Made by a program: the position numbers and the translations under genes
Shown here: positions 2,727 through 34,447 of the stretch, in pieces
Layout: each line of letters opens with the position of its first letter
Numbering within the stretch: the first letter of the stretch is position 1
IMG/VR virus record: IMGVR_UViG_3300028840_006907
Span: 384,001 to 448,000 of that record
From: a virus
DNA: 64,000 nucleotides
Direction: 5' to 3' (one strand)
Notes under the pieces: generated by a model
What the model was told of the DNA's origin: nothing
What the model saw: only the letters and a program-made list of their open reading frames with translations
Database searches by the model: none

Positions 2727-5700
2727 ATGAGTCTTAGGCAAAAATTAGATGAAGCATTAGATCGAATAAAGGATTTAGAGAAGAAGCTCAAAGAAAGTGG
2801 AAAAGAGGCTAAAGAATTTGGTGAATTAACCGAAGATGCCATAAAAAAGAGTGTCAAAGAGCTTGGCAATCTAAATAATTTACTCGGAAAAAGTGTCAAT
2901 ACTATTAAAGACATGAATAAAGAAGTTCGTGATCTCCATGTAGCGGGTGCCCTGGATACAAAAGAAGCGACTGATTTAAATAAAGGCTTGGAAAGAATTG
3001 CCAAACAATTAATACATATTAAAAAAATAAAAAAAGAAGACAGGACCTGGGCAGAACAGAGAGCTGAGATTAAAAAGTTAAATAAGATGATTGATCAGAT
3101 GAGGAGTAAGACCAATCTTGCTAGAAATTCAGCTAAAAGTTTTGCCGATCATATGGAAGATGCTGGTCCTTCTTTTATGAAGGGGTGGGCTTCTTTTAAT
3201 AAAGCTTCTAAAAAAGGCCAAACTACAATTCAGAGTTACCAAGGAATGTTTAATAAGGCTGGTAATAGTCTTGGTAAAATGCCTGGTTTAATGAAAGGGT
3301 TCGGTTCTGCTGCAAAAGGAGTCAGTGCTTCACTTGGTGGAATTACTAAGGTTATAGCTGGGTGGCCTGGTGCAATTTTTATGGCATTAAAAGCAGTATG
3401 GGATGTAGGGATGGCTGCTGACCAGTTTGTAAAAGATGCTAACAAAGCTTTTGCTTCTGTTCGTGGACCTGATATCATGACTGCTGATGTCAGAAAACAA
3501 TTTAAAACTTTTAATGACCAGATATTTAATGCTCGTGAAAATATCCGGGTTGGATTGGATGTCACTCAGATAAGAGAATTGATGGAAGCGGTAGTTCAGG
3601 CGGGTGCAAATATTCAAAATTTGAATAAAGGACTTTTATCATATAGAGATGCTATTTACATTGCAGGAAAAGCCAGTAAAACATTAGGATTGGCTTTACC
3701 ACAAGTAGGTAGTATGGTCGGTAAATTATTAACCAATTTCAGGATGGATTTAGAAAGTATTGATAAAGCTTTTGTTCAGGTGGCATTTGATGCTCAGAAA
3801 TCAGGTCTTTCCACTGACCGGTTCTGGACTACTGTTGAGAATGCCTCTGCTTCTCTGGCCCTTTATGGGACATTTATTGGGGCTGCGAGTAAAACAATGA
3901 AACGTTTTACAGAAGACATGGTAGGTGGAGCGGATGATGCAGCAGAAGCAACTGAAGATATGTATTCAGTATTTAAATCGGGGAACCTTAAGGCTCAGGC
4001 CACTTTGTTAAGTATGGCAAAACAGGCTGGGGTAAATTTGGATGATATATTCAAAAATATGAGTACTGAATTTAAGGATCAGGCTGTAAGATTACAATCT
4101 GAAATAGAATTAATGGAAGCAAAAGGAACAAAAACTCCTGAAGATGTTGCACAGTTAAAAAGATTGAGATCTGAATTGGCTTCAGCGCAATCTAAGTCAC
4201 AAAGGGCTCTTGATGTTGTAGGTAAAAATGCAGTTTCCCAGACAACTGAAATAGGTATGCTTGCAAAGGAAGCCCCTCAACTTCTTATTGAAACTATAAG
4301 AAGAATGACTAATGTAGGGGATTTAACTAAAATTTCCAGAGAGAGAATGATTGTAGCAATAAAGGCTTTGGAAAATGTTGGTGTTAAGGAGAAAACAGTA
4401 CGCTTATTGGTTGAACAAGCTAAAGTAACTAAAAAGAGCCTAGAGAATTTATTGGATTCATCAGAAAATTTCTTTGCGGAGAATAATAAAGATTTCCAAT
4501 TGAATAGAGCAAATATTGCTAATGCTATAATGGAGGCATCGAAACCTGGAAAGGACCAAGCTGCAAATACACAGATTCTTGTTGATCTATTAAAGGAATC
4601 TCTTGGTATGGATCAGGGTATGGCTGAGACATGGGCAAATATTATAAAAACCGATAAAGAGACAGCAAATAAGATAGCTTCTCGCATTGAAAAAGGTGAT
4701 AAGAATAGTTTAAAAAGTATTGATGGTCTTTTGATGGCATCAAAATTTATAAATAAGTTTCAAATTGCTACATTTAAAAATCAAGAAAAAACTGATAAAG
4801 AATTAGCCAAATCATCAGAAGAGACTTTTGATGAGATTGTAAAAGGGACTCTTTCCTATAATGAAATGGTCAAAATGGGAAAAGATGAACTTTATTGGAC
4901 AATGGCTAATTGGAAAGTTGCGACTATCATGAATAAAACTGTAGCTGATATTTATTATTGGTTACAGGGTGAATCTACTCGTTTATCTCAATCACAAAAA
5001 CTAGCCCAAGAACAGTTAAAATTGATGGGTCAACAGAATGCGGGTATCGGAAATCTTCTTAAAGATGTAGGAGAAGGGAATATCTCTGCAAAAACACAGG
5101 TGGCTATGGTTCAGCATGTCTCTCAAAATCTTAAAGATTTACAAAGTGCTATAGCAGTAGAAGAGGGGCTCCAAGGAGCTTTTGAAAATGCTATGAGATC
5201 TACTGATCCTTCTAAAGCATTAACAAATGCTATAATGGCTGCTGAGAAAGATAAAGATAAAAAACTTGCTAATAGATTAAAAGAAGAGAAAAAGAATTTT
5301 GAAGCATTAAGAGAACGTAAAAAAGGCCGATTGGATGAAGAGAAATATTTTAAAAATTTAGCTGAAGCAAACAGAAGTACTCTGGAAAGGAATAAACAAG
5401 AAAGAGGTAAACAGGAAGAAATCAAAAATAAATTAGTGGAGCTGAATGATATAAATAAAAAAGTCTTTGAGATTCAAAAATTAAAATTGATGGGTGATGA
5501 AAAATCATTAATAGCAATTGCCGATCAAATTCAAGCTACTGCTGGAGAAGATGTAAATAAAATAGAAAAAATGGCTACAAATATGGGGTTGACTCTTGGA
5601 GATGTGAAAAGAGCTTTTGAGGCTAAAAAAATATCTACAGTAGGCATAGAAAAAAGAATGGCTGCAAGAAAAATTTTTAAAAAAACAGAAAAAACTTTAG

Positions 5701-6035
5701 CTTCAATGCCACAAAAACCAATTAAATATGTAGATCCTATGGAAGCTGCATATAGAAAAGAAATGGGCTATCAAGGTTTACAGAAACCTATTCAGGTAAC
5801 CTCACCTGGTAGTGCTGTTTTACATCCAGGAGAACTTATTCTTCCAAAGACTTATTCTGAATTTAAAGCAGTTCCAGCTATGAATGAACCTATGGGTGTT
5901 CATCCTGGTGGTGGAGTTGGAAGAGGTGCAAAGGAAATTACGATAAATGTTACTGCTACTGAAAAGGATCTAGCTAGTAAAATTGCCAATGAGGTTAGGG
6001 CTGTAATTAATCAGGAATATATAGGAGTGGCATAA
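2727..6035 (+). CDS. tail tape measure protein
   Basis: 1102 aa, largely coiled-coil/alpha-helical with a Gly-rich hydrophobic segment (GAIFMALKAVWDVGMAA); length and position typical of tape measure proteins. Confidence 0.6.
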   Translation: MSLRQKLDEALDRIKDLEKKLKESGKEAKEFGELTEDAIKKSVKELGNLNNLLGKSVNTIKDMNKEVRDLHVAGALDTKEATDLNKGLERIAKQLIHIKKIKKEDRTWAEQRAEIKKLNKMIDQMRSKTNLARNSAKSFADHMEDAGPSFMKGWASFNKASKKGQTTIQSYQGMFNKAGNSLGKMPGLMKGFGSAAKGVSASLGGITKVIAGWPGAIFMALKAVWDVGMAADQFVKDANKAFASVRGPDIMTADVRKQFKTFNDQIFNARENIRVGLDVTQIRELMEAVVQAGANIQNLNKGLLSYRDAIYIAGKASKTLGLALPQVGSMVGKLLTNFRMDLESIDKAFVQVAFDAQKSGLSTDRFWTTVENASASLALYGTFIGAASKTMKRFTEDMVGGADDAAEATEDMYSVFKSGNLKAQATLLSMAKQAGVNLDDIFKNMSTEFKDQAVRLQSEIELMEAKGTKTPEDVAQLKRLRSELASAQSKSQRALDVVGKNAVSQTTEIGMLAKEAPQLLIETIRRMTNVGDLTKISRERMIVAIKALENVGVKEKTVRLLVEQAKVTKKSLENLLDSSENFFAENNKDFQLNRANIANAIMEASKPGKDQAANTQILVDLLKESLGMDQGMAETWANIIKTDKETANKIASRIEKGDKNSLKSIDGLLMASKFINKFQIATFKNQEKTDKELAKSSEETFDEIVKGTLSYNEMVKMGKDELYWTMANWKVATIMNKTVADIYYWLQGESTRLSQSQKLAQEQLKLMGQQNAGIGNLLKDVGEGNISAKTQVAMVQHVSQNLKDLQSAIAVEEGLQGAFENAMRSTDPSKALTNAIMAAEKDKDKKLANRLKEEKKNFEALRERKKGRLDEEKYFKNLAEANRSTLERNKQERGKQEEIKNKLVELNDINKKVFEIQKLKLMGDEKSLIAIADQIQATAGEDVNKIEKMATNMGLTLGDVKRAFEAKKISTVGIEKRMAARKIFKKTEKTLASMPQKPIKYVDPMEAAYRKEMGYQGLQKPIQVTSPGSAVLHPGELILPKTYSEFKAVPAMNEPMGVHPGGGVGRGAKEITINVTATEKDLASKIANEVRAVINQEYIGVA

Positions 6036-6036
6036 G

Positions 6037-6804
6037 ATGGCTTTAAGAAATAGGCGCTCATTTGCTTTAGAGAAGGAATTAAAAACTAACGCCTCAGACC
6101 GTCATTTTGTAAAAGCTTATGATAGCTATTTATATAATGCTCACGGTGTCTCAAAAAATGTTAATCGTGTCAGATTTTTTATGCAAGTAGTGGATTTAAA
6201 TGGTAAACCTGTCTCTTATACTATTGATGGTCAAGTATTTTTAGGACTCGTTTTATTAATCAATCCTTCGAGTATAAGTGTTAATTTATCTAAGATAGTA
6301 GGTAGAACACAAACAATGACAGGATGGGTAGAAGATCATTGGGGCGAAGAACTTGATACTTTATCCCTTCAGGGAAGCAGTGCTTCATTTATATGGGAAG
6401 GAGCAAATCTTCCTTCAACTAATCCGAAGTATGGTACACCTTTAACTCAATCTTCACAAGAGATCAGAGAGATGTTAAATAAATACATGAATATCCCTGA
6501 TTTGAATTTAACTGAACCCATCCAGCCAGGAGATCATAGTGGCTTGACAGTAAAGAGAAGACGTGAAACTTTATCTTATGATGAGTTCAGGGGTATCATG
6601 AAAATGATGAATGCCAATGCAGCCAAATTTGATGCCTATGGACAAGTGAGAGAACGTTTGTATATTCAATTATCTTATGATTATGCAGCCTATCGTGGCT
6701 ATTTTGAAAGTATTGATGTCACAGAAGATTCGGAAACTCCATATAAATTTATTTATACAATTACATTTAAAGCGGAAAAAACAATTTATAGTTTTTTGAG
6801 GTAA
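6037..6804 (+). CDS. hypothetical tail/baseplate protein (distal tail protein candidate)
   Basis: 255-aa ORF starting 2 nt after the tape measure stop. Confidence 0.45.
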   Translation: MALRNRRSFALEKELKTNASDRHFVKAYDSYLYNAHGVSKNVNRVRFFMQVVDLNGKPVSYTIDGQVFLGLVLLINPSSISVNLSKIVGRTQTMTGWVEDHWGEELDTLSLQGSSASFIWEGANLPSTNPKYGTPLTQSSQEIREMLNKYMNIPDLNLTEPIQPGDHSGLTVKRRRETLSYDEFRGIMKMMNANAAKFDAYGQVRERLYIQLSYDYAAYRGYFESIDVTEDSETPYKFIYTITFKAEKTIYSFLR

Positions 6805-6808
6805 TTTA

Positions 6809-7651
6809 ATGGAACCAATAAGACGAGAAGGTGTTGATGACAGAGTAATTATCCGAAAAGAAACTGATACATTTTTGGATGGAGTAATCACAAATGGTTA
6901 TGCACAATTAAGATCTGATAGAGCTGATGAAGTTCTTCGGCAAGCTGGAGCCACTTTTACATCAGGTCTACCTGGATTTGGGGATAGTACTTCAGTAACT
7001 CAACCAAACCCATATTTAACAGGCGCTCTTACAGCTCTCCTTCCTATGAAAATAGCTATTGCTGATAAAGATGGTTTCCGACTATCATTTACATTATTAG
7101 TAAATCCTTCGAACATGAATCATGGTAAAACTTCTTCTGTATTCACAGATTATACTCGTGGAGGTTATATTACTCAATTATGGGGACCTAATCAAGATTT
7201 AATCTCATGTATAGGAAAGACCGCTGCCTTTATAGTGGAAGGAACGGGTTTAACTAATGTCTCTCGTCGAAGATCTTTTAGTTATATGAATTTTTTGTCT
7301 TTGATGTATGCTTATCGTAATAATGGATATCAATTTTTAGATCTTACCTCTTTTAAAGATACTTTGACAAGAGTTGTAAATGTTATTCATGGTGTGGAAT
7401 TATCTTATGACAATCATAATTTTATGGGCCATTTTAATAATTTTACTATCGATGAATCTGCTGATCGTCCTTATTTATTTGACTATAACTTTGAATTTGT
7501 AGTAAGTTCATTAAGTCGTGATTATAATGAAGTAAGAGGCCATTTTGTCCCTATAAAAGATGTAGGTTCAACTGAAGATGTGCCAAAACTGGTAAATAAT
7601 GTGACTGAAAATTCGGTAATAAGACCACTAGTAGGATTAGGGGGATTTTAA
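6809..7651 (+). CDS. hypothetical tail/baseplate protein
   Basis: 280-aa ORF in tight array; ends ...GLGGF* where the stop is embedded in the next gene's GGATTTTAAATG start context. Confidence 0.45.
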   Translation: MEPIRREGVDDRVIIRKETDTFLDGVITNGYAQLRSDRADEVLRQAGATFTSGLPGFGDSTSVTQPNPYLTGALTALLPMKIAIADKDGFRLSFTLLVNPSNMNHGKTSSVFTDYTRGGYITQLWGPNQDLISCIGKTAAFIVEGTGLTNVSRRRSFSYMNFLSLMYAYRNNGYQFLDLTSFKDTLTRVVNVIHGVELSYDNHNFMGHFNNFTIDESADRPYLFDYNFEFVVSSLSRDYNEVRGHFVPIKDVGSTEDVPKLVNNVTENSVIRPLVGLGGF

Positions 7652-9940
7652 ATGGCTAGTACTTTAAGTAGTGGATTATTTACATTAAAAGAATTTTATA
7701 ATCGTGGTGTGATAAAATTAGCTCCTGATGTCCTTGTTTATATCGGAGGAAGTTTAACTACATCTGTCATTGCACCGGTAAGTGGGAAAGATGATACCGT
7801 TTCATTTAATGATGGAATTACTTCAGTTAATGTACAAAATAATATTGATCCTCCAGGAACTTCTACAGCTACCATTGAAATTACTACTCCTATTTATGGA
7901 GAAAAATCGAAATATTGGACCTATTTTAAAGGGATCGATAGTAATTCTCCAGTTCGGGCTCCTTTATTTGTTCCCATGATGGAAGTAAAGATTTATTATA
8001 AGGGTCGGTTTATGGTTAATGGAAGTCCAAAATATTATCCAGCTTTTTGGGGATTCATAACAAATGTGGAAGAAAATTATTCAGGAGGTGTGTATAAGAT
8101 CAACCTGACTTGTGCTGATACTCTTCATTGGTGGGGTTATAGTACTATTAATATTCACCCTATTTCTGAAGCTAATATTATGTCAGGTGGTAATTTAATA
8201 TTAACTGCTTTTTCCACTATTTTTAGAAGATTAAATCCTTATCAGATTTTGTATAAACTCACTACTGATATGGGAATGCATCAATTTGTAACCTCAGCTT
8301 GGGCCGGTCAGAAAACTCCTTTAAATAGCATTTATCCTACGGGTTTGTTTAGAAAAGTAACTCAGGGTATAATGGCGTATTGGCAACAGCGTTTTGCTAA
8401 TATGGGTAGTTTGCTAAAAATGTATGGAATAAATGGTAAACGTGTAGATCGGAATGGTGTTCAGGAAAGACAACCTGAAATCTATGTTCCGAAAAAACCC
8501 GGAAATTCTCTTCAACAAAAAGCTACTGAGCCTCAGGATAAAAGTCTTTTTAGTTTAGATAGAAATTATATTCGTCAATTTGAGATATTTGTTGATTATG
8601 ATGATATGGGTGGTTGGGATAATTCTGAATACATGACTAAACTTCAGATTGCTACTGAGGTAAAAACTAAAACTGATTTTGAATTTTATCAAGATGTCGA
8701 TGGCAATTTTATATTTAAACCACCTTTTTATAATTTAAATGTTAAAGGTGTCCTTCCTTATACTCTTCTTCCTAGTGATATAATAAATTATACCCATAGC
8801 ACTGATACTGAAGGTTTAATTACAGTGATGACTGTTAATACTCCTTTAGATAAAAATTTACGCACAACAACATATGCTCTTGGAAAAGGTTTCCATATGG
8901 ATATTGATTTAGCAAAAAGATTCGGTATTCGACATCAGGAAATGACCATGGAATATATAAATAATCAGGCTTTGGCAAGAACTCTTGCATTGGGAGAGAT
9001 GAATAAAATTAATTCCAAAGCGACAACAGGAAGTGTCACTATTCCTGGACGTCCTGAGATCCGATTAGGTTATCCTGTTTACATAGAGCATCGGGATAGT
9101 TTCCATTATGTCAGAGCTATTAATCATGCCTTTGAATATGGTGGAACTTTCACAACAACTTTATCTCTTGAGACTGAAAGAGTAAAGATATATGATCCTG
9201 ATGATAATTGGGAACCATATTTGGATAAAGTTTATTCTTATACTGGTAAAGCAGCTCCGAAAGATCCGAAAAAAGATCCTAATGTTGATACTCCTCCTAC
9301 TATAGCAGTGACACAAGATGTTGAAAAGAAGCAACAGGATTTAATGGTAGGTGAAAGAGTTTTACATTCTATGCAACAGGGTAAATATGCTCTTGTAGAT
9401 CGTCAAGGTGATAGTCAGTTATCTGCAACATCGACAACAGTACCTTATACTGATGAATTCGGTTATAGAGTAGTTGGTTCTTTTCCTTATGGTCGGGCAT
9501 TAAATCCAGTAAGTGTTGTTACGAATACAGATGATTTACCTTATTTAAAAGAAACTTATTTAACTACAATGGCAAGACCTGTTCATGAGTATGAGTCTGA
9601 AAGTATGAATATTCTGTTTTTTGACGATAAAGATGGTGCAGTTCCAAATTATTTAAATCTAGAAAATCGCCAATTACCTAGAATATTAGGTGCATTTAAA
9701 GATACTGATTTAGATAATGAATATGATCTCGAAAGTACTGTTCAGACAGAATCGCAAAGAAGAAGAAATAAAGGTGATGATAGTAAAAAAGAATTAACAA
9801 ATGATAAAATAATTGATATTACATCTGCGAGACCTCCAAAATCCGATGTTCCTCCTGGAGAGAGTAAAAAGATATTATCGGATTTACGTGATGACAGTGT
9901 GCCTGAAGCTAGAACATTGAGTGGGATCGGAGGATTTTAA
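7652..9940 (+). CDS. hypothetical baseplate hub-like structural protein
   Basis: 762-aa ORF immediately upstream of the spike-like gene; ends ...GIGGF* at a GGAGGATTTTAAATG junction. Confidence 0.45.
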   Translation: MASTLSSGLFTLKEFYNRGVIKLAPDVLVYIGGSLTTSVIAPVSGKDDTVSFNDGITSVNVQNNIDPPGTSTATIEITTPIYGEKSKYWTYFKGIDSNSPVRAPLFVPMMEVKIYYKGRFMVNGSPKYYPAFWGFITNVEENYSGGVYKINLTCADTLHWWGYSTINIHPISEANIMSGGNLILTAFSTIFRRLNPYQILYKLTTDMGMHQFVTSAWAGQKTPLNSIYPTGLFRKVTQGIMAYWQQRFANMGSLLKMYGINGKRVDRNGVQERQPEIYVPKKPGNSLQQKATEPQDKSLFSLDRNYIRQFEIFVDYDDMGGWDNSEYMTKLQIATEVKTKTDFEFYQDVDGNFIFKPPFYNLNVKGVLPYTLLPSDIINYTHSTDTEGLITVMTVNTPLDKNLRTTTYALGKGFHMDIDLAKRFGIRHQEMTMEYINNQALARTLALGEMNKINSKATTGSVTIPGRPEIRLGYPVYIEHRDSFHYVRAINHAFEYGGTFTTTLSLETERVKIYDPDDNWEPYLDKVYSYTGKAAPKDPKKDPNVDTPPTIAVTQDVEKKQQDLMVGERVLHSMQQGKYALVDRQGDSQLSATSTTVPYTDEFGYRVVGSFPYGRALNPVSVVTNTDDLPYLKETYLTTMARPVHEYESESMNILFFDDKDGAVPNYLNLENRQLPRILGAFKDTDLDNEYDLESTVQTESQRRRNKGDDSKKELTNDKIIDITSARPPKSDVPPGESKKILSDLRDDSVPEARTLSGIGGF

Positions 9941-11872
9941 ATGAGGAATAGATATTATGCTCCTGGCGAAAAACCTCATAGTTCTTTCATAGATAGAAAT
10001 AATCAATATTTTTATGTTAGAACGGGTGTTATTGAAGAAATCGATCTTGATAAATATACAATGACTGTTAGATGGGAACCAGGTAATGGTAGTAGAGACC
10101 ATGTCCCAATAAGTTTTCCTTACGCAGGTCCGGCAGGATTTATTGGGATGTTGCCAGAAAAAGGATCATTCGGAATTTTTGGATGGTATAATTCTGGAGT
10201 GGGTGGTGGAAGTCCTCTATTATTAAGTTATCTTCCAGCAGGTCTTGATGCAGGATTAAATTATAATGTTGTTAAGATACATCCTGATGCTATTCCTACG
10301 AGTGATGTAAATGAGATTTTATTTAAATTCAGAAAATTGGGATTAAATGATTTGGTCATAGCTTCCCCATCGGGAGCTGAAATTACTTTAAATGCTAATT
10401 TAGAATTACGTGATGGTTCTCAAGATACTTTTTTAATCCGTGATGAAGATCAATCAATTATTGCTACTTCTCTAAATAATTTCATTTTTGCTGATGGTGT
10501 AGCGGTAAGTGCTGGTCCCGCAATGAGAAATAGCCTTGTACTCTATGATAAAAATGGAAAAAAGATAAGAAATAACGGTAGTCTCGTATCTCTTCCGGAT
10601 GGAAAAGAAAACATTTATATAGTTCCTAATGGTGAAGATATCACTTATGATACTCAATACTATTCTGAATATCGGGTTGATGTAGATGAATTGGTTGATG
10701 GAAAATTAGATCTTAATGACATTAATAGTTCTTCTCCATTATCAACAAGAGATCCTCTTATAACTTTAGCAATGGGTAATTACATAGGAGCTGATCGAAC
10801 TAATCCTCAACAGTATGGAGAAATATTAAAAGCAGTCCTTTTTTCTTCTCCAAATGATATAAAGGGAAACTTCGGTTTAGAAAAGGCGATACGAGATAAT
10901 GCCATGGATGAACCTTCTATTATAGGTCTCGCTTATGCTTTACATTCTTTGAAATCAGGGTGTTTTATTGGAATCGATAAAGAAGGCCATTATTATATGA
11001 ATCTCCCAGCATCGAAAACAAATCCTTTAGGTGCCGGAAGATCGATGTCTACCCTGGCTCAAGGTAATTTAAAAGAGATATGGGGAGGAGAAGCTTTAAT
11101 AAATAACTCTTGGGATTTGGCTACAGCGGGTGGAGTTCGTTGGAATATTGGTGCTCATAACACTAATTTAAGAGGTCGAAGTATTGATATAAAGACTTCT
11201 CAAGGTATAAATGTCGAAATAAATGGGAATGATGATGACGGTTATGCCAGAAAAGAGAAGATCAAAGGGAATACATATGAGAATGTTGGGGGCAACAAAA
11301 CTGAAGTTAGTTCGAATTTAACTCTTGTTATAAATGGGTTGAAGACTGAGAATATAGGTGGTTCTCATACTCAATCTATACAGAGTGACAAAAGTGTTAA
11401 TGTGTTGGGAGTTTATTCAGAAACAGTTTCGAAAGAGAAGCAACAAAAATATGGGAGTAGAAAGACTGTCATAACTCCTCAAGGTAATGATGAATTGGAA
11501 GTTAATGCAGGTGATATCCAACACACAATAACTACATTCGGTCAAAAGAAATTGTCTGTAAACGGTGGGAATATTCAACAAAACATTGGAAATGGAGTTT
11601 ATGAGACTCTTATAAAATTAGGAAGTTATACTCTTGATGTAAAGACAGGATCGATAGAAATAAAAACTGCACTAGGTACTGTAACAGTTTCGGGAACTTC
11701 AGTAGAGATAAAGGGTTCAGTTTCTGTAAGTGTTGATGCTCCAGTAGTAAAATTAGGACAAAATGCACCTATAGGAGGAGTTGTAACAGGTCTTCCTGGA
11801 ATACCTTCTCATGCGGATTATGTGACAGGTGCTCCTCTAAAAGGAAGTTTAAAAGTAAGTGCAACGGCTTAA
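9941..11872 (+). CDS. baseplate central spike protein (gpV/gp5-like: N-terminal OB-fold-like region plus C-terminal beta-helix)
   Basis: N-terminus 'RTGVIEEIDLDKYTMTVRWEPG...' resembles spike OB-fold regions; C-terminus is a run of short beta-strand repeats (GNIQQNIGNG..., SIEIKTALGTVTVSGTSVEIKGSVSVSVDAPVVKLG) typical of spike beta-helices. Confidence 0.5.
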   Translation: MRNRYYAPGEKPHSSFIDRNNQYFYVRTGVIEEIDLDKYTMTVRWEPGNGSRDHVPISFPYAGPAGFIGMLPEKGSFGIFGWYNSGVGGGSPLLLSYLPAGLDAGLNYNVVKIHPDAIPTSDVNEILFKFRKLGLNDLVIASPSGAEITLNANLELRDGSQDTFLIRDEDQSIIATSLNNFIFADGVAVSAGPAMRNSLVLYDKNGKKIRNNGSLVSLPDGKENIYIVPNGEDITYDTQYYSEYRVDVDELVDGKLDLNDINSSSPLSTRDPLITLAMGNYIGADRTNPQQYGEILKAVLFSSPNDIKGNFGLEKAIRDNAMDEPSIIGLAYALHSLKSGCFIGIDKEGHYYMNLPASKTNPLGAGRSMSTLAQGNLKEIWGGEALINNSWDLATAGGVRWNIGAHNTNLRGRSIDIKTSQGINVEINGNDDDGYARKEKIKGNTYENVGGNKTEVSSNLTLVINGLKTENIGGSHTQSIQSDKSVNVLGVYSETVSKEKQQKYGSRKTVITPQGNDELEVNAGDIQHTITTFGQKKLSVNGGNIQQNIGNGVYETLIKLGSYTLDVKTGSIEIKTALGTVTVSGTSVEIKGSVSVSVDAPVVKLGQNAPIGGVVTGLPGIPSHADYVTGAPLKGSLKVSATA

Positions 11873-11882
11873 GGATCAATAA

Positions 11883-12491
11883 ATGCCATTAGTACCACAA
11901 ACAATGAAAAGTTTTATAATAGTCAAGGCGTCATCCTTAACTATAGCAGGGGATAAATTATCTTATTTTGTCTCAGCTATTGCTAGTGCTACTTGTCAAT
12001 ATATTCTTTCAGCTTCAACTGTAAATAGTACTAATATTGCACTAGGGCCAGGAGGTGGAACACAGACGGGGAAAGTGGTAGGATTAGTCCCTTCTGGTAT
12101 GAGTGCACTAATGATGGCACGAGCAACCGCTAATGGGCTTTCTGGAAGAGATTTAAAGAAAGTTTTTGATTCTATTTCTTTTGGGGTGGTGAATGCTATG
12201 AAGGCTGTTGTACTTCAAGGAACAATCATAGGAGCTGGTCCTGGGACTGGGACAGGGAAAATTATAGGTTTAGTTCCTTCTGCTCTTCAGAATTTAATAT
12301 ATGCTCAATCTGCTTTTAGATTGATTTCAGGAGATAAATTAAGGCCAATATTATCAGCTATAGCTTTTGGTATATGTAATCATATAATGTCGGCGGGTAC
12401 AGTAAATGCAACTGACATAGGAGCTGCAGCCGGACCACCTGCAGGCCCAGTAACGATACCTGCTGCACCAGGAATAGGGAAACTTGTATAA
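11883..12491 (+). CDS. hypothetical protein with three internal repeats of about 55 aa; spike-tip/cap candidate
   Basis: Internal repeats (K-L-x-x-x-x-S-A-I-A... V-N-x-T-x-I... G-P-G-x-G-x-G-K-x-x-G-L-V-P-S) seen three times in the translation; directly follows the spike gene. Confidence 0.4.
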   Translation: MPLVPQTMKSFIIVKASSLTIAGDKLSYFVSAIASATCQYILSASTVNSTNIALGPGGGTQTGKVVGLVPSGMSALMMARATANGLSGRDLKKVFDSISFGVVNAMKAVVLQGTIIGAGPGTGTGKIIGLVPSALQNLIYAQSAFRLISGDKLRPILSAIAFGICNHIMSAGTVNATDIGAAAGPPAGPVTIPAAPGIGKLV

Positions 12492-15400
12492 ATGAGTACT
12501 GATTTAAATACACTGTTATCGTATAATACGATAGATCTTGAATTTTTTGAAATACGTGGATCAAGATCGGGAGTCAATAATGCTCGTACAACAGGTGTTG
12601 TTTATGTAAACGGGCAATATGTTCCAGGAAAGAGTGATGTCACAGGAAGTGGGACTTTTGCTAGTGATGATACTGTTAGTGGATTTTCATTTGGAGCACC
12701 CTATGGTGCTTTAACTACTTCTTCATTAAAAGTGGGAGATAATCTTACTGCTGACTCCACTATTTTTAGAATAGCAAATATCGATTCTTCTACCAGTTTT
12801 CAACTTGAAAGTGCTTCGGGTCTGACAGGGGTTTATCCTATACAATTTGATATGGGTCAAAGAGAATATGTTGTAGAGCCAGATACAATAACAAATACTT
12901 CGACCGGTACAGCTAGCTTTACTTCTGGAGATAAGACTGTAATAAATACAGGTCCTTCTTGGTCAGGGATAATAGCCCCAGGTGATTTTATAAAACATGA
13001 TGGATATCAAGAATATTTTAGAATAGCTGCGGTACCTTCTGGGACATCATTAACATTAGAGAATTCTTATTCAGGTGATACTACGAGTGGTTCCTATACT
13101 GCTAAGAAATGGGTTATAGGTAGAACCAGAATTCAGTATGCTAAAAATGATATAACTTATGATGATCAGGCAGCGAAGTGGAAATATGGGGCTATAGAGG
13201 CTGATGATCTTACTACTTCTACGAATTTTACTCCTCTAGTAGATGGAGTTACATTAAAATTTTCTCGTGCCTTAAATACTAATGATCCAGATTTAATGGA
13301 TGTGGCTGTTACAGAGAATACCATTTTTGCCAGAGAGACTAAATATGAAACGTTTCAGTTTGCTCTTCCTGTAGTTCCTTTTCCTGAATCTTCTATGAAA
13401 CTTTGGATTAATAGTGTCGAACAAACGATGTATCAAGATTATGTATTATCCTATTCTCAGAATCCTTTATATGTTTTACCTCCTCCTCCAAATGAGCGTT
13501 TTGTGGCTAATATAATGTTTTTAACAGAATTATCAAACAGCCCAAGTACAGAATTAACAGCATTAGGAGAGTTCAATATTACTGATTCTTCTGGTAATTC
13601 GATAGGAGGAATATATCCGGGATCTTTTTCATTGACTGTTGATGGTACTACTCAGGTTCCTTATAGAGATTATGTATTGGAAGGGAATTCTGGGACTATC
13701 AATATTATAGATTCAACTGTAAATGAAGAGATAGTAAAATATGTAGGTTCTGATTATAGTGATTATATCGATTATGGTTTTAAAGTTTATTTAAATGGGA
13801 TAGAACAAAAAATTTCTTTTCCTGCTGAAATTGATGATGATATTCTTTTTCAGGTTGCTATAGGAAGGTTAAAACCTCGTGATAAGGACCATCCGGGACC
13901 TGGTGAAATTTATCAAATAAATTATATGGTTGAATCAAATCCTGTTTCTGATGAGCTTATTGTAGGAACTGATGGTGGAACTGTCATTGCTACGAGTTCT
14001 TATCCGATAAAGCAAGATTCTATTTTGTTAATAAAAAATGATACAATTCTTACAGAAGATGAGGATTATTTTGTTAGTTATTTAACTGGTAGAATTTCTC
14101 TTATAGACACTCTTACTTCCCAGGATAATTTTTCTATAAGCTATACTCCTCTTTCAAAACAGGTTAATAATTTATTTTATACAGATAACGCTTGGTATTG
14201 TACAGTAAATGATTCTAGGTTAACAATAGTAGATGCTGATAATTATAGATTTAGTTTAATAAATCTTAGCCTGGATGCTGGTGAGATCCAAATTAATCGC
14301 ATTTATAATGAGACAAGAGATGGGGATTATGATTTAACAAATATCCAGACAGAGGGACCGACTCTTTTATTGGAGAAAAATGCTACTAATACTTCTATAG
14401 GATTAAAATCAACTGATGTTGTACTAATTGATTATACTTTTGAAAGTGAATCAACGGAATATTATCCGGTTGTTGTAAATAATTTAAATATAACTGAAGG
14501 GGTAAAAACTGTTTATATAGAAGGGTCTGACCTGACTTCATTTATAGATGCAAGTTCGATTCTCACTCTTGCTAGACCTGATTCTGCTGTGCAATATTAT
14601 CATACCATTTTAAGTTCTTCTTATGATAATTACGGTACAAGAATAAATATTGAAACACCTATTTTTGAAGATATAATAAACCCAAAAATGTTTATAGGTG
14701 ATAGTGCTCCTACTTATTTAAGTGTTCCTTTAACGGCTGGTCCTATTATAAGTGGTTCTACCAATATTTCTTTTTTTGGTGATAATATTCAAAATATTTT
14801 TCGAAGTAAAACAATTCTTGATGTAAGTAATGATTTATATCAAGTAGCAAGTGCTTCGTATGATAGTGATACTACCACAACCACGGTTAATCTGAGATCA
14901 GGAATATTATATGATCGAACAGACTCTACAGATTTATCAAGTTTAAAATATAGTGATAACCCATATTATCTTGAAGGTGATACAGAGATTTATGCTTCAG
15001 AAACGATAGCGACTTTATCTGATCAACCAGGTTTCATAATGAATTATAATAGTGATCAGATAATAGAAATTACAACTACTGAATCTGATTTGACTGTTGA
15101 TGGAACCTCTTTCTCATATAATACTTATCCGACTTTAAGTGATCTTTCAGGTGCTATGACGGTTATTCCGTCGTTGGCTGTTACTACATATATCCCAGCG
15201 TGGCAGAGTAGTAAAATTGAACTAGTGACTGAATTGTCTGTTTTCAGGGACTCAAGTACTGTATTAAATGTCTCAAATGCTTTAAGATATAAAAGTATTG
15301 ATGCTACTGCTTTTGTTGATACTACGGATTATTCAATAAGTAATAGAGGTACAGTTATTTTAGATAACCCTCTTGTAAGAGGAGATAAATATAATCTTGA

Positions 15401-17834
15401 TTACATGGGTTTGGAATTTCTTGGTAATAAACAAGTCAGTTATACTGCAGGTTATTTTGATTCATTACCTGCAAAATCAGAAGTAAAGGCTTCCTTTCAA
15501 TTTGTTAATTTAGATCAATTTTATATCCAGGTTTTAGATCAGAGAGATTTCTTTAGTTCAGTGACTATTCCTCGAATGAGGGAAGAAGCGATTCAACTTA
15601 GTGGTAGTGTAGGTCAAGGTGGTGAAGTTATTGGTGATGAAGGTAACGATAATGCTTCTGGAGGAATCACTGGTGATGAATATGCTCGACAGGACATGGA
15701 AATAGAATGTCGTGTATTCCAGAATATCTATGATTTTTTCAGTAATCGATTAGAGGCTTATGGCGATGAAATGGAGGCATCTGTAGGTCTGAAATTATTT
15801 AATAATGATGGTATATTTACACAGCAAGAACAGGATGCTGCGAATAAAACTGTCAGTAGAATTTTTCCAGATGTTGATAATACTAATTTTGAACCGATGG
15901 AAGTGAACCCATTAACAGGTTACTTTTTTGACAATGGTGCAAAATTTGTTAATGGTTCAACAACTGTGACTAGTACAGGTAATACTCTTTGGACATTACA
16001 ATTAAATAATTCGGGTTATATTGGTAGCGCAGATTCAACGAAAAGATATCAAATAAATAGTATCACTAATAATGCTGAACTTGAATTGACTACCTCTTAT
16101 GGAGAAAATTCCTCTAATGTTAATGATGGCGAACGCTATACTGCAGTAAATACTGATTACCCAGTTTATGATGATGACGGTTTTGTAGGGGCAAGAATAA
16201 TAGGGACAAGAGCGAGTAATTTTGGTTTAATAAATGGAGACACATTTGAAATATTTCTTGATGGGACGGATTTAACTCATAAGAAGACATATACTTTTTT
16301 AGATACTTTTTTTCCAGTAGCCAATTTAAATGGACCATTGGTAGCAGGATTATTATCAACAATTAATGGTTTAAGTTGTACATACGAGTCGGTTCTTGAT
16401 CCTACTACAACTTATGGTTATCGTTCCACTTTAGTTTTTAGGACAGATTCAACTGTTAATTATATGAAACTTGGTGATACCACTACGACAACTAAATTAG
16501 GATTTGTAAGAGATGATACTGTTTATGGGAATTATGATAGATTAAATTATAGCTCATCTGCTATTTCACTTAATTTAGTCCCTCCTGAAGCAATTTTAGA
16601 TTCGAGTGAAGCGCATGCCATCGGTGAAGAATTAGGTTATCAGAGTTCATTAATTGCTTTAGGAAGTCCTGATAAGTTAAATCGAATAAGTCCAGCAGGT
16701 CTTATTTTTGCAAGTGAGATTTATAATTCTGCCTCATCTCAGGTAGATCTAATTTATCAAGAGATTCCGAAAATAGAAGAACAAATCACTGCTACAGGTC
16801 TTATTATTGCAGAGGAAGATATTCCTTCTGCTGATACTTCCACAGCTCATTTAAATGCAACTTTAATGTTGGCTGATACCAGTGCTGCATTAATCGATGC
16901 TACAGGAATTATTACCGATTGGCAAGGGAAAGGAACCGATTGGGAATGGGTTTCAGATTTTACACAACATAGTGTATTTATTCGTGGTAAAGACAGTACC
17001 AATGTTGGTGTTCCGGTTTCATCCGGACCTGGCATTACAAATATTGATGGTCAGCAATCTTTTATTCTTCAGGCACCTGCTGGATATGATCGAAGAATAT
17101 TGAATAATACAATTTTTTCTGTTACGTATTATCCTGCAATAGTAGATGCTACAAGTAATATCCCTTTTGATGGGACATGGACAGGATGGGGCATTTACGG
17201 TTATAGTAATAACAATGAAATTACATTTACTTTAGATCAACCTAATATGATCTTTCTTAATAACGTTTCAATGGCTGGGACTAATCAGAGATATATTACT
17301 GATAGTACAGCTTTGAATATTTTGTGGGATGTAGGACCAAGTACGACAACAGTAACATTTCCGTATGCAACTTATGCAACGGTCTCTAGTATGAAAATTG
17401 CTTTAAATACTATTTCAGGATTAAGTGCTACTGGACCTGCAATACATGATGCAAGTATTTGTAAAGCATTTTTAATATTGCCTCCTCAATCAATCACTCC
17501 TGATGCCACGGTTTATCCAGGATTGAGAGATGCTACAGTAGCATATCAGACAATTTCTGATATGATGCTTGCAGACAGAACTAATTTTGCCAGTGATCGA
17601 AGTAATTTTCTTGTAAACAGAATAGATTATTTAACAAATACTAGAAATACACAGATAAAAAATGCTATAAAAAATGAACAACTTTTACTCGATAATGGAG
17701 AACCCAGTGATCTTTATAATTGGGCAAATAACAGATTTAATAGGAGACAAGGGTGTTACGCAAAACTCAAACAAATAGAGCAACAAATAGCTTCAAACGA
17801 GTCAGCTCTTCAAATAAACAAGAGTTTCTTTTAA
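12492..17834 (+). CDS. giant tail fibre/baseplate-associated protein (1780 aa), Ser/Thr/Asn-rich
   Basis: Uninterrupted 5.3-kb ORF with a beta-rich, low-charge composition typical of fibre/adhesin-like proteins. Confidence 0.5.
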   Translation: MSTDLNTLLSYNTIDLEFFEIRGSRSGVNNARTTGVVYVNGQYVPGKSDVTGSGTFASDDTVSGFSFGAPYGALTTSSLKVGDNLTADSTIFRIANIDSSTSFQLESASGLTGVYPIQFDMGQREYVVEPDTITNTSTGTASFTSGDKTVINTGPSWSGIIAPGDFIKHDGYQEYFRIAAVPSGTSLTLENSYSGDTTSGSYTAKKWVIGRTRIQYAKNDITYDDQAAKWKYGAIEADDLTTSTNFTPLVDGVTLKFSRALNTNDPDLMDVAVTENTIFARETKYETFQFALPVVPFPESSMKLWINSVEQTMYQDYVLSYSQNPLYVLPPPPNERFVANIMFLTELSNSPSTELTALGEFNITDSSGNSIGGIYPGSFSLTVDGTTQVPYRDYVLEGNSGTINIIDSTVNEEIVKYVGSDYSDYIDYGFKVYLNGIEQKISFPAEIDDDILFQVAIGRLKPRDKDHPGPGEIYQINYMVESNPVSDELIVGTDGGTVIATSSYPIKQDSILLIKNDTILTEDEDYFVSYLTGRISLIDTLTSQDNFSISYTPLSKQVNNLFYTDNAWYCTVNDSRLTIVDADNYRFSLINLSLDAGEIQINRIYNETRDGDYDLTNIQTEGPTLLLEKNATNTSIGLKSTDVVLIDYTFESESTEYYPVVVNNLNITEGVKTVYIEGSDLTSFIDASSILTLARPDSAVQYYHTILSSSYDNYGTRINIETPIFEDIINPKMFIGDSAPTYLSVPLTAGPIISGSTNISFFGDNIQNIFRSKTILDVSNDLYQVASASYDSDTTTTTVNLRSGILYDRTDSTDLSSLKYSDNPYYLEGDTEIYASETIATLSDQPGFIMNYNSDQIIEITTTESDLTVDGTSFSYNTYPTLSDLSGAMTVIPSLAVTTYIPAWQSSKIELVTELSVFRDSSTVLNVSNALRYKSIDATAFVDTTDYSISNRGTVILDNPLVRGDKYNLDYMGLEFLGNKQVSYTAGYFDSLPAKSEVKASFQFVNLDQFYIQVLDQRDFFSSVTIPRMREEAIQLSGSVGQGGEVIGDEGNDNASGGITGDEYARQDMEIECRVFQNIYDFFSNRLEAYGDEMEASVGLKLFNNDGIFTQQEQDAANKTVSRIFPDVDNTNFEPMEVNPLTGYFFDNGAKFVNGSTTVTSTGNTLWTLQLNNSGYIGSADSTKRYQINSITNNAELELTTSYGENSSNVNDGERYTAVNTDYPVYDDDGFVGARIIGTRASNFGLINGDTFEIFLDGTDLTHKKTYTFLDTFFPVANLNGPLVAGLLSTINGLSCTYESVLDPTTTYGYRSTLVFRTDSTVNYMKLGDTTTTTKLGFVRDDTVYGNYDRLNYSSSAISLNLVPPEAILDSSEAHAIGEELGYQSSLIALGSPDKLNRISPAGLIFASEIYNSASSQVDLIYQEIPKIEEQITATGLIIAEEDIPSADTSTAHLNATLMLADTSAALIDATGIITDWQGKGTDWEWVSDFTQHSVFIRGKDSTNVGVPVSSGPGITNIDGQQSFILQAPAGYDRRILNNTIFSVTYYPAIVDATSNIPFDGTWTGWGIYGYSNNNEITFTLDQPNMIFLNNVSMAGTNQRYITDSTALNILWDVGPSTTTVTFPYATYATVSSMKIALNTISGLSATGPAIHDASICKAFLILPPQSITPDATVYPGLRDATVAYQTISDMMLADRTNFASDRSNFLVNRIDYLTNTRNTQIKNAIKNEQLLLDNGEPSDLYNWANNRFNRRQGCYAKLKQIEQQIASNESALQINKSFF

Positions 17835-17990: not shown

Positions 17991-19850
17991 ATGCCAACAA
18001 GTCAAGTAAATGTACCAGCTCAGTTAAAAGCTTTTCCATATGTCGCTCCTCCATTAGATACAAGTCGTGGTGGGACAGATAGTTCATTAGATAGTTTAAT
18101 TACAGCTCTTGAACAAATATCAGCTAATGTACCTGATGATATCACAGATTTAATCGGTCCTGGATCAACTCCTGTACCTTCAATAGGACAGGATGAGTGG
18201 CAAAGTGTTTCTATTGCGGATTTAAGTTGGGTAGAAAGAATTACTTCACCACTTAATAGTGCTTTGCAGAAAATTGATAAAATAGTTATAGCATTGACTA
18301 AAATTTTAAAAATTATTGAATTATTCACCAGTACTTTTAATTCCTTTTCTAAACTTATTATAAGTGCAATAGAGTTGGCTCAGAATAAATTAAATGAATT
18401 TGCTCTTGATACAATGGGTTTTGGTGTTTCGGCAAATGTGCTTGTGCCTCCTGCTTTATTAAAATTAGTGGGTGATGTTGATTCTCGGAATCAGCTACGT
18501 GGAGGTTTTAATGGTTTTTTAACTCGACTAGAGAGTTCAATATATAATGTACAAGATCCTAATAGGCCCCAATTTACAACGAATGATTATGTTGGAGGTC
18601 TTGTTATTGTCATAGATTCAGAATCTTTAGATGTGGCTTGGAGAGGGATGCAACAATTAGCATCAATGTTTGATTTCATGACTCTTTTTGGATTGAATCT
18701 TGCTCCTCCTCCCCCTACTAATTTGGGTGGGTTTAGTGGAAGATTTTCATATGATGATGAAGAAGAAGAGTATGAAGTTCAAGATGATATAACCCGAGCG
18801 GAAGATAGTGCTGATGAGTCCTCTGCCAGGGAATGGCAATTCGGTGTTCAGATTGAATGGGATCAGACTTATTCTGCTTCAGGATTTAACATCTATAGAA
18901 GTCGTGTTCCAGGAGGGCAGGCACAATTAGTTGAATATATTCCTACTTCTCTTGTTGATAATAAAGAGACTGGTGAACCTGGTCTTTTGTCTATTGTGGG
19001 TGATTGGATTCTTAATATTAGAGCTGGGGAAGATGTTCAGCTACCAGAAAGGTTAGAATATGTTTATGAAGATCCTGATTTCCCTGGACCGGTGTTTGTA
19101 CCAGCAGGTTTAGACTCCAGATTAAAATATGTTGATACGAATATGCAAACGAAAATTCTTAATCCGGAAGCAGATGCAGAAGATCAAATAGAAATTCCGA
19201 TTTATGTGGATGATGAGGGGAAAGAAGTTCCTGTCAGTAATTATTACTATATGATTCGGGCTTGTAATGCGAGTGGTCAAGGAGAAGGGCCAAATTCTAA
19301 AGAATTATCAGTTGCTATAAAAGCATGTAATGATGCTTTTAGTATTGCCGATTTAATTCAACATCCTAATGGGAGATTTGAGTTTTTTTCTATTGGATAT
19401 GGTAAGATAAATAATTGGTCTTCTATAAAATTGACAAAGATGATTCCTTGGTTTACGGAGATTGTAGGAATATTAAATGATTTTTTAGAGACATTAAAAG
19501 GAATGGCAACAAGTGCTTCTGATTCTTTTTCGGATTTTCTTGATCAGATAAAAGAAAAAGTATCCTTATATACCAATATTTTAGGAGCAGTGTCCTATTT
19601 AGTTGAGAGAGTGAAAGATTTGGTATTAGGACCATCTGCAGCCTATTTAAATGTTCCCCCCGAAAAAGGTGGTATGCCTGTTTTCCTTGAGAGAGTAAAA
19701 AATGCTCAAGGAGGGGAAGATTTTAGTGGTTCTAATGGAATAACTATAGGAGTGGTTTTGGTTTATGGGGCCTCTGGAAGTCAGATTGCTCAATTGGCTC
19801 TTTTAAAAAGAGCTTTTGATTTTATTTATTCGCTTTTTGTTGGAGATTAA
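17991..19850 (+). CDS. hypothetical structural protein
   Basis: 619-aa ORF; contains a possible Ig/FN3-like segment (EWQFGVQIEWDQTYSASGFNIYRSRVPGG) and an acidic stretch. Confidence 0.45.
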   Translation: MPTSQVNVPAQLKAFPYVAPPLDTSRGGTDSSLDSLITALEQISANVPDDITDLIGPGSTPVPSIGQDEWQSVSIADLSWVERITSPLNSALQKIDKIVIALTKILKIIELFTSTFNSFSKLIISAIELAQNKLNEFALDTMGFGVSANVLVPPALLKLVGDVDSRNQLRGGFNGFLTRLESSIYNVQDPNRPQFTTNDYVGGLVIVIDSESLDVAWRGMQQLASMFDFMTLFGLNLAPPPPTNLGGFSGRFSYDDEEEEYEVQDDITRAEDSADESSAREWQFGVQIEWDQTYSASGFNIYRSRVPGGQAQLVEYIPTSLVDNKETGEPGLLSIVGDWILNIRAGEDVQLPERLEYVYEDPDFPGPVFVPAGLDSRLKYVDTNMQTKILNPEADAEDQIEIPIYVDDEGKEVPVSNYYYMIRACNASGQGEGPNSKELSVAIKACNDAFSIADLIQHPNGRFEFFSIGYGKINNWSSIKLTKMIPWFTEIVGILNDFLETLKGMATSASDSFSDFLDQIKEKVSLYTNILGAVSYLVERVKDLVLGPSAAYLNVPPEKGGMPVFLERVKNAQGGEDFSGSNGITIGVVLVYGASGSQIAQLALLKRAFDFIYSLFVGD

Positions 19851-33862: not shown

Positions 33863-34447
33863 ATGTTTTATAAAGAAAATCTGCATAAAACCGGTGATAC
33901 ATTTTCAGGGGGTTTTAAGTTAAGATATCTGGAACAATCACCTTCATTAAAAGGCGAGTTCTGGATGATACTTAAAGATCGTTCTGGACAAATAGTTGGT
34001 AAAAGACACGGAAATAATATTATTGTAAATTCCGCTTCAGTTTTAATAGCACGTTTATTAAAGGACAATAGTGAGCCTAGTGGTGGAATTACTTATTTGG
34101 CAGTAGGTACAGGTGGGGTTGGGTGGAATTTACAGAATCCTCCTCAGCCTACAACTACACAGACAACTCTTGAGAATGAAATAGCCAGAAAAGCTTTTAC
34201 AACTGAGGATGTAACTTTTGTAGATCCAGAAACCGGGGATCCAACTATTGTTCCAACGAACGTTCTTGATTTCACCGCAACATTTGCAGAAACAGAAGGT
34301 GTAGGTCCTTTAGTGGAAATGGGTTTATTTGGTGGAGATGCAACAGATTTATTGGATAGTGGTACTGAAGTCAATTACAGAACTTTTCCTGTTCTAAATA
34401 AAACAAATTCAATGACTTTGACCATAATATTTAGGATAACAGCTTAA
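33863..34447 (+). CDS. hypothetical protein
   Basis: 194-aa ORF, SD AAGGAG upstream. Confidence 0.4.
   Translation: MFYKENLHKTGDTFSGGFKLRYLEQSPSLKGEFWMILKDRSGQIVGKRHGNNIIVNSASVLIARLLKDNSEPSGGITYLAVGTGGVGWNLQNPPQPTTTQTTLENEIARKAFTTEDVTFVDPETGDPTIVPTNVLDFTATFAETEGVGPLVEMGLFGGDATDLLDSGTEVNYRTFPVLNKTNSMTLTIIFRITA

Follow-up and report, generated by a model that had tools for sequence, protein, structure and literature searches.

The stretch of DNA analysed here, hereafter the window, comprises the 64,000 nucleotides (nt) at positions 384,001 to 448,000 of the IMG/VR virus record IMGVR_UViG_3300028840_006907. The element under study is an open reading frame (ORF) located at 11883..12491 on the + strand, which runs from an ATG start to a TAA stop (12489-12491) and codes for a threefold-repeat protein of 202 amino acids (aa), designated rep202. 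An earlier note on this DNA had delimited this ORF, quoted three peptide strings from its product and placed it directly after the gene of a trimeric beta-helix central spike. The ORF was retrieved as described, all three strings were found within rep202, and the 643-aa ORF located upstream (9941..11872, +), separated from the rep202 ATG by a gap of 10 nt, proved to be of gp5 type. The product of this spike gene combines an N-terminal spike domain with a gp5-type triple beta-helix at approximately aa 440-600. It matched Pfam Gp5_trimer_C at E 0.0025 and phrog_430 ('baseplate hub subunit and tail lysozyme') at E 4e-4, and a profile built from 19 spike homologues matched the beta-helix chains of T4 gp5 in PDB at E 0.002-0.005. 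The C-terminal tail of the spike was conserved and rich in Gly and Pro, the C-terminal alignment giving the pattern GGVVTGLPGxPSHxDYxTGxPLKGS.

Both borders of the rep202 gene are tight. On the 5' side, a Shine-Dalgarno-like AAGGA (11871..11875, +), as read from the sequence, is situated 7 nt 5' of the ATG and overlaps the stop codon of the spike gene. On the 3' side, the rep202 stop codon abuts the ATG of a 1780-aa ORF, forming the junction TAAATG. This giant gene, g1780 (12492..17834, +), codes for an acidic, Ser/Thr/Asn-rich tail protein in which a tail-fibre PHROG domain was weakly matched at aa 136-200. Scanning for promoters and terminators around the spike gene, rep202 and g1780 yielded no signal above chance, and the three genes were therefore read as one operon.

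Internal repeats and predicted fold

The repetition within rep202 was clear at the level of primary sequence. Local alignments between the thirds of the protein reached z values of 9.8, 12.9 and 7.4 when compared with 500 residue shuffles, none of which (0/500) matched the observed score. A single-repeat hidden Markov model (HMM) built from the family found three matches in rep202, at aa 2-66 (independent E-value, i-E, 1.5e-20), aa 68-128 (i-E 7e-21) and aa 130-192 (i-E 1.2e-20), and no other match in the window or in the related loci L001-L027. The three repeats announced by the earlier note were thus significant, while the length of about 55 aa that it had given them was not retained, as they span 62-73 aa. 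They are mutually about 27-30% identical, and each starts with a recurring 'LVP' motif (MPLVPQTM, GLVPSGM and GLVPSAL).

Each repeat is predicted to form two helices followed by a beta-hairpin, and a GxxxGxxxG pattern could be read in every hairpin. Repeat 1 (11889..12083, +; aa 3-67) has predicted helices at 5-18 and 26-44 and a hairpin at 46-55/57-66, with the glycine pattern at G59, G63 and G67. Repeat 2 (12084..12269, +; aa 68-129) has predicted helices at 70-83 and 89-106 and a hairpin at 110-116/121-128, with glycines at positions G117, G121, G125 and G129. Repeat 3 (12270..12488, +; aa 130-202) is predicted to comprise helices at 132-145 and 153-171, the latter including a conserved FGICNH, and a hairpin at 173-182/190-201 whose turn is rich in proline (GPPAGP); IPAAPGIGKLV forms the C-terminus of the protein. 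In distant family members, 110 of the 135 third repeats scored best against the repeat-3 HMM. Since the identity of repeat 3 has been kept family-wide, the triplication appears to be old.

The earlier note had proposed a pseudo-threefold protein made of a single chain, and in this respect the repeats, the AlphaFold2 topology of three units and the residue couplings were all in agreement. Structure prediction of rep202 alone, based on 38 homologues, returned a threefold-repeated helix-helix-beta-hairpin topology with a predicted local distance difference test score (pLDDT) of 88.3 and a predicted template modelling score (pTM) of 0.82. An identical AlphaFold2 topology (pLDDT 83, pTM 0.82) was obtained for a family member displaying only 17-24% identity with its aligned relatives. 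Residue couplings were derived by mean-field direct-coupling analysis of 252 sequences, corresponding to an effective number of 217. Among the top 50 couplings, 11 (22%) joined equivalent positions across repeats, compared with 1.9% expected (p 2e-9). Those of helix 2 followed an i, i+4, i+8 ladder (29/94/156, 33/98/160 and 37/164), and those of strand 1 linked positions 51/113-115/178, 53/118 and 111/176. In symmetric assemblies, residues lying on the axis touch their own symmetry mates, and the simplest reading of these couplings is a closed pseudo-C3 domain, in which the second helices and the first strands would be central.

The predicted fold had no evident relative among known structures. 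A PDB sequence-profile search with the rep202 family yielded nothing at E <= 10, and a Foldseek comparison of the rep202 model with PDB produced no counterpart (best E 0.33). A structure search of BFVD gave one match, an unnamed viral protein of 207 aa (E 6.6e-4), which is probably a distant member of the same family.

At the end of helix 2, the three repeats differ at equivalent positions, which are occupied by Tyr40 (12000-12002), Ala105 (12195-12197) and His167 (12381-12383). In the close family, His167 is invariant and Cys165 nearly so, and these residues constitute a conserved asymmetric layer on the presumed axis. Two candidate relationships between rep202 and the spike were considered and rejected. 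The first, a metal site shared between a spike histidine and C165/H167 of rep202, was discarded because the spike histidine is not conserved. The second was a fourth repeat, formed by the C-terminal tail of the spike (GGVVTGLPGIPS...) and homologous to the junction motif GKVVGLVPS...; it gave no HMM signal.

The composition of rep202 is extreme. Its grand average of hydropathy (GRAVY) is +0.61, for a family mean of +0.64 and a family maximum of 1.07, whereas GRAVY was negative for all neighbouring tail proteins. The protein contains no Glu, 2.5% Asp and 6.9% Lys+Arg, with an isoelectric point (pI) of about 10. No transmembrane segment was detected, the maximum Kyte-Doolittle mean over 19 residues being 1.54 and thus below 1.6, and neither a signal peptide nor a lipobox was found in rep202. 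As no 19-residue window reached the threshold and the predicted helices are only 14-19 residues long, rep202 is not a classical membrane protein, although its overall GRAVY is still within the range of membrane proteins. Its surface must be largely apolar, which suggests burial in an assembly or contact with lipids.

Family distribution and gene order

Close homologues of rep202 numbered 133; they were 50-86% identical to it, nearly all exactly 202 aa long and all unnamed. Several of them were located on contigs of 470-590 kilobases (kb), and the contigs carrying the family reached 619 kb. Exhaustive searching of 1.84 billion cluster representatives with a family profile retrieved 157 clusters (50% identity) at E <= 1e-3. 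Almost all of these clusters were 186-211 aa in length, and this near uniformity indicates a fixed architecture of three repeats. Among the 150 of the 157 matches listed, none exceeded 245 aa, and fusions to larger proteins were thus not observed. Likewise, a single-repeat profile search in a set of 5.8 billion proteins revealed no one-repeat relatives of about 65 aa and no domain fusions.

Established family collections provided little annotation. No real match for rep202 was found in Pfam, PHROGs or NCBIfam, and 29 distant members were without a Pfam family. Nine of these 29 matched phrog_5576 (best E 2e-13), an unannotated PHROGs v4 family whose profile length of 65 corresponds to one repeat; the window protein itself did not match this profile. 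Among 50,697 GenBank phage records, nothing was found by tblastn with three family members, nor by megablast with the rep202 region, and the 185,579 species-representative genomes of bacteria and archaea contained no relative. So far, the family is known only from phage contigs of metagenomic origin.

In the window, rep202 belongs to a contractile-tail module carried on the + strand, with the order tape measure (phrog_167), 255-aa protein, 280-aa protein, hub-like 762-aa protein, spike, rep202 and giant. The module continues with proteins of 619, 545 and 240 aa, Baseplate_J, a 1358-aa BNR-repeat protein and more fibre-like proteins, and is followed by replication genes. The order tape measure - g255 - g280 - hub - spike - rep - giant - g619 was found in 21 of the 21 IMG/VR loci of the close clade. 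A subfamily about 30% identical to rep202 displayed the same gene order, with giants of 2461-3221 aa that are homologous to g1780, and the succession spike - rep - giant was retained in three more distant lineages. In lineages other than that of the window, the g1780 homologues following the repeat gene measured 1781-3221 aa, and the N-termini of the giants were unalignable between lineages.

A scan with the spike profile identified 78 further loci, 48 of which carried a repeat gene, always directly 3' of the spike gene. This adjacency extended to spikes only 22-28% identical to that of the window. Taken together, the repeat gene was located 0-30 nt after a gp5-like spike gene in about 70 loci (21 + 48 + several more).

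In one distant lineage, represented by L027, similar proteins of 416-419 aa are encoded on both sides of the repeat gene (4833-6092 and 10603-11853), one after the spike gene and the other between the repeat gene and the giant gene. With their helix-turn-helix-rich N-termini and nuclease-like C-termini, this pair looks like homing endonucleases.

Possible role of rep202 in the spike complex

The spike complex has been described by Mattenberger, Leiman, Belin and colleagues in 2025 as a trimeric hub, a trimeric spike and an optional monomeric tip (PMC12407873). In their report, spikes with an HxH near the C-terminus have an Fe-containing apex of their own and were proposed to function without a tip, while those without HxH were proposed to be tip carriers (PMC12407873). 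PAAR proteins account for most of the spike tips known from contractile injection systems, and tips rank among the best-conserved components of such machines (PMC12407873).

The distribution of HxH among the spikes found here was compatible with a tip function of the repeat protein. HxH was absent from the spike of the window and from the last 80 aa of all repeat-associated spikes (0/42 distinct, 23 + 19). The sole related spike with HxH is a 1003-aa relative encoded in L064 (6920-9931), in which an HVH situated 25 residues from the C-terminus indicates an apex of its own. This locus comprises tape measure, g255-like, g280-like, hub, spike and giant but lacks a repeat gene; 193 nt separate the spike gene from a giant ORF whose length is 1792 aa or more.

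Conservation pointed in the same direction. With a mean identity of 56.8%, rep202 was the most conserved of eight module proteins, the corresponding values being 51.4% (spike), 46.9% (hub), 42.4% (giant) and 34.6% (g619), and its identity surpassed that of the spike in 15 of the 18 loci.

PAAR-type features were not recovered, as the earlier note had stated for the motifs. The protein contains IPAAPG and no PAAR, and the Pfam PAAR_motif did not match it at E <= 1. The PAAR-family profiles (PAAR_motif, Tox-PAAR-like and DUF4150) matched neither rep202 nor any of five distant members at E <= 1, and none of 29 members at E <= 0.1. As a positive control, T4-type gp5.4 matched PAAR_motif (PF05488) at 9.4e-10 in the same library. 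Comparison of the rep202 family profile with T4-type gp5.4 by hhalign gave a probability of 0.1%, and no PAAR domain was present among the 22 tail-module ORFs of the window tested against Pfam.

From these data, rep202 is almost certainly a real and strongly constrained component of the tail or baseplate module in a broad lineage of huge phages. It also displays several traits of the tip class, namely a gene beside that of the spike (except in L023/L024), a single threefold-repeat chain, an apex-less spike and high conservation. We tentatively assign it to the axis of an apex-less gp5-like spike, as a cap or adaptor not of PAAR type; this is plausible, with a likelihood that we place slightly below even. 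Under this assignment, rep202 would be a structural component of the virion, belonging to the central spike complex in a large lineage of huge contractile-tailed phages. We infer its presence in the virion, a stoichiometry of one copy per trimeric spike and its binding to the spike tip. Its helix-helix-beta-hairpin units would fold into a closed pseudo-trimer, with the second helices and first strands arranged round the pseudo-threefold axis. It would take the PAAR/gp5.4-type role, capping and stabilising the blunt end of the spike and forming the membrane-attacking tip. Its apolar, glycine-rich surface would be suited to touching a membrane or a partner, the giant protein encoded downstream being one example.

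A more specific version appears possible, if rather doubtful: rep202 may represent a third, structurally new class of spike tip among contractile injection machines, in which a single-chain alpha/beta pseudo-trimer with a near-uncharged, glycine-zipper surface caps apex-less gp5-like spikes of huge phages and possibly docks the giant protein or enters the host membrane during penetration. If true, a widespread and strongly conserved non-PAAR tip with a fold not seen before would mean that proteins were recruited to the tip position on more than one independent occasion. Such a tip would further offer a handle on how the cell envelope is breached by huge phages of 380-620 kb, a lineage without any cultivated member. 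The extreme composition of the protein, with no Glu, a GRAVY of +0.6 and no transmembrane segment, is relevant to protein design and to the annotation of the 'dark matter' of metagenomic phages.

Several observations weigh against a position of rep202 at the spike tip. The support provided by L064 comes from one contig, and 18 distinct related spikes lacked HxH and also had no repeat gene beside them, so that the HxH rule does not hold exclusively here. Part of the coupling between equivalent positions could result from parallel adaptation of the three repeats and not from contact across the axis; if the repeats had adapted in parallel to three identical partner chains, the signal would be similar and compatible with the same biology. 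A GRAVY of +0.61 combined with the lack of Glu is unlike known PAAR tips and suits a buried or a membrane-inserting protein equally.

A further point is gene linkage, which was stricter with the giant gene than with the spike gene. In the L023/L024 (P0242) lineage, the repeat gene opens the operon without a spike gene upstream, adjoins unrelated, divergently transcribed non-structural genes, and precedes the genes of a giant of 2240 aa, whose relationship to g1780 is weak (E 6e-5), and of a g619-like protein. A spike gene was sought downstream in L023 by an exact-match scan and two protein-based scans, which found nothing. A giant ORF of at least 1000 aa directly followed the repeat gene in 43 of the 43 loci with enough downstream sequence (37 in the main count and six more, missed by its threshold, among the close-clade loci), compared with a giant ORF after the spike gene in 1 of 23 repeat-less spike loci, and no locus was seen that carried spike and repeat genes without a giant. 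Since the giant was always retained and no spike gene lay upstream in L023/L024, the module, where it breaks, does so between spike and repeat genes, never between repeat and giant genes. The suggestion made in the earlier note, a spike-tip-like cap or a different tip or adaptor fold, was therefore upheld in part: the non-PAAR sequence, the predicted fold without a solved relative, the adjacency to the spike gene, the apex-less spikes and the conservation agreed with it, whereas the tighter linkage to the giant gene did not and makes a role as adaptor or partner of the giant protein a serious rival.

According to this rival explanation, which on balance we consider rather unlikely, rep202 would be a dedicated partner of the giant protein (g1780 family), either as a pseudo-trimeric adaptor anchoring a trimeric giant to the hub or spike, or as an assembly factor. 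Its location after the spike gene would then be the mere insertion site of a block rep202 - giant - g619 between P2-type V and W. Compared with the P2 order V-W-J-I, rep202-g1780-g619-g545 indeed looks inserted before g240 and Baseplate_J. The co-occurrence counts above, the persistence of repeat and giant genes together without a spike in L023/L024, and the translational coupling suggested by the TAAATG junction all favour such a partnership. In P2-type order, the gene after V is that of gp25/GPW, the sheath initiator; rep202 had no match to the GPW_gp25 profile in Pfam, NCBIfam or PHROG searches. Other data fit a partnership less well. L064 keeps a giant after its HxH spike without any repeat gene, so the giant has no strict need of rep202. 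The genes of tail-fibre chaperones are normally located downstream of that of their fibre, whereas rep202 is upstream of the giant gene and matched no chaperone family. A mean identity exceeding that of the giant by the margin reported above (56.8% versus 42.4%) would be unusual for a factor tracking a fast-evolving partner, and the matches listed (150 of 157 clusters) included no rep202-giant fusion. Both functions, capping the spike and serving the giant, are compatible with each other, because a pseudo-trimeric adaptor placed between a trimeric spike and a trimeric giant fits both data sets.

It is also conceivable, though improbable, that rep202 acts on membranes: stored in or beneath the spike or hub, it would be released on infection instead of serving as a passive cap. 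Its glycine-zipper hairpins would insert in the host envelope and help to form a conduit for the tape-measure protein and DNA. The positive hydropathy among neighbours of negative GRAVY, the lack of Glu, the high pI and the GxxxGxxxG in each hairpin are in line with this behaviour. On the other hand, no 19-residue window attains transmembrane hydropathy, the helices of 14-19 residues are short, signal peptide and lipobox are missing, and AlphaFold2 predicted a compact and confident single domain (pTM as above). Finally, another baseplate or assembly function, such as a plug of the hub cavity touching the C-terminus of the tape-measure protein or a non-virion scaffold for the assembly of hub and spike, agrees with the core position in the module, where the tape measure, hub and spike genes come before rep202 and the Baseplate_J wedge gene after it, and with a very apolar surface suggesting burial in a complex, but is likewise improbable, given that no similarity to known hub, gp25, LysM or plug families was found and that the missing repeat gene beside the HxH spike of L064 would be left unexplained.

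Other genes of the module and comparison with known spike tips

Several further genes were characterised in the window and in related loci. The baseplate hub-like protein (7652..9940, +; 762 aa) displayed weak matches to PHROG tail proteins and was syntenic in all related loci. The g619 gene (17991..19850, +; 619 aa) is located 3' of the giant gene in most lineages and belongs to the rep202 - giant - g619 block. Between tape measure and hub, two adjacent paralogues of 255 aa (6037-6804) and 280 aa (6809-7651) were kept in every related locus, attaining 480-565 aa in some lineages; they have no family assignment and may be tube-initiator or distal-tail-like proteins. The 1358-aa protein encoded after Baseplate_J (25444-29520) contains five beta-propeller repeats of BNR/YCF48 type (PF14870, E 7e-27), an unusual domain at the position of a gpI/gp7-like wedge protein. 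A 194-aa protein (33863-34447) matched Pfam BW3TFN, 'baseplate wedge 3 tail fiber network component', at E 4e-7 and phrog_5417 at E 4e-25. Beyond the module, a DNA polymerase of 1262 aa (44090-47878) matched polymerase PHROGs over aa 11-575, and endonuclease, helicase and ribonucleotide-reductase PHROGs at about aa 567-857; these non-polymerase matches suggest an intein or a homing-endonuclease insertion.

In repeat-less loci, other genes were observed after the spike gene, their assignments being based on inspection of the sequences only. L063 and L082 carry a protein of 257-265 aa resembling an N-acetylmuramoyl-L-alanine amidase with a peptidoglycan-binding domain, while L075 and L081 carry an AIG2/gamma-glutamyl-cyclotransferase-like protein.

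Among known or proposed spike tips, a first comparison concerns phage RB43, for which an unconfirmed non-PAAR tip candidate is encoded right after the spike gene (PMC12407873). This orf205w-type candidate (about 690 aa) resembles rep202 in being non-PAAR and in directly following a gp5-like spike gene. Its homologue from Cronobacter phage LPCS28 (684 aa, L112:4333-6384) did not match the family HMMs, the only hit covering 8 residues at E 0.15. In contrast with rep202, this homologue is hydrophilic (GRAVY -0.76 over the first 220 aa) and three times as large.

The PAAR tips (PF05488; T4 gp5.4 and PAAR of the type VI secretion system) share more general features with rep202. Both are small single chains with an internal threefold pseudo-symmetry, predicted in the case of rep202, both are encoded beside a trimeric beta-helical spike without an apex of its own, and both show a high relative conservation. 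They nevertheless have no sequence or profile similarity. With 202 aa, rep202 is about double the length of PAAR proteins (about 97 aa); it is also far more hydrophobic, and predicted to be approximately half alpha-helical, whereas PAAR is an all-beta cone.

A last comparison can be made with the apex of P2 gpV and phi92 gp138, characterised by a C-terminal HxH and a buried Fe. In that apex, which belongs to the spike chain itself, a true trimer encloses a metal ion, whereas rep202 is a separate gene product without HxH. The purpose proposed for rep202 would nonetheless be the same, namely to provide the spike with a sharp and stable end.

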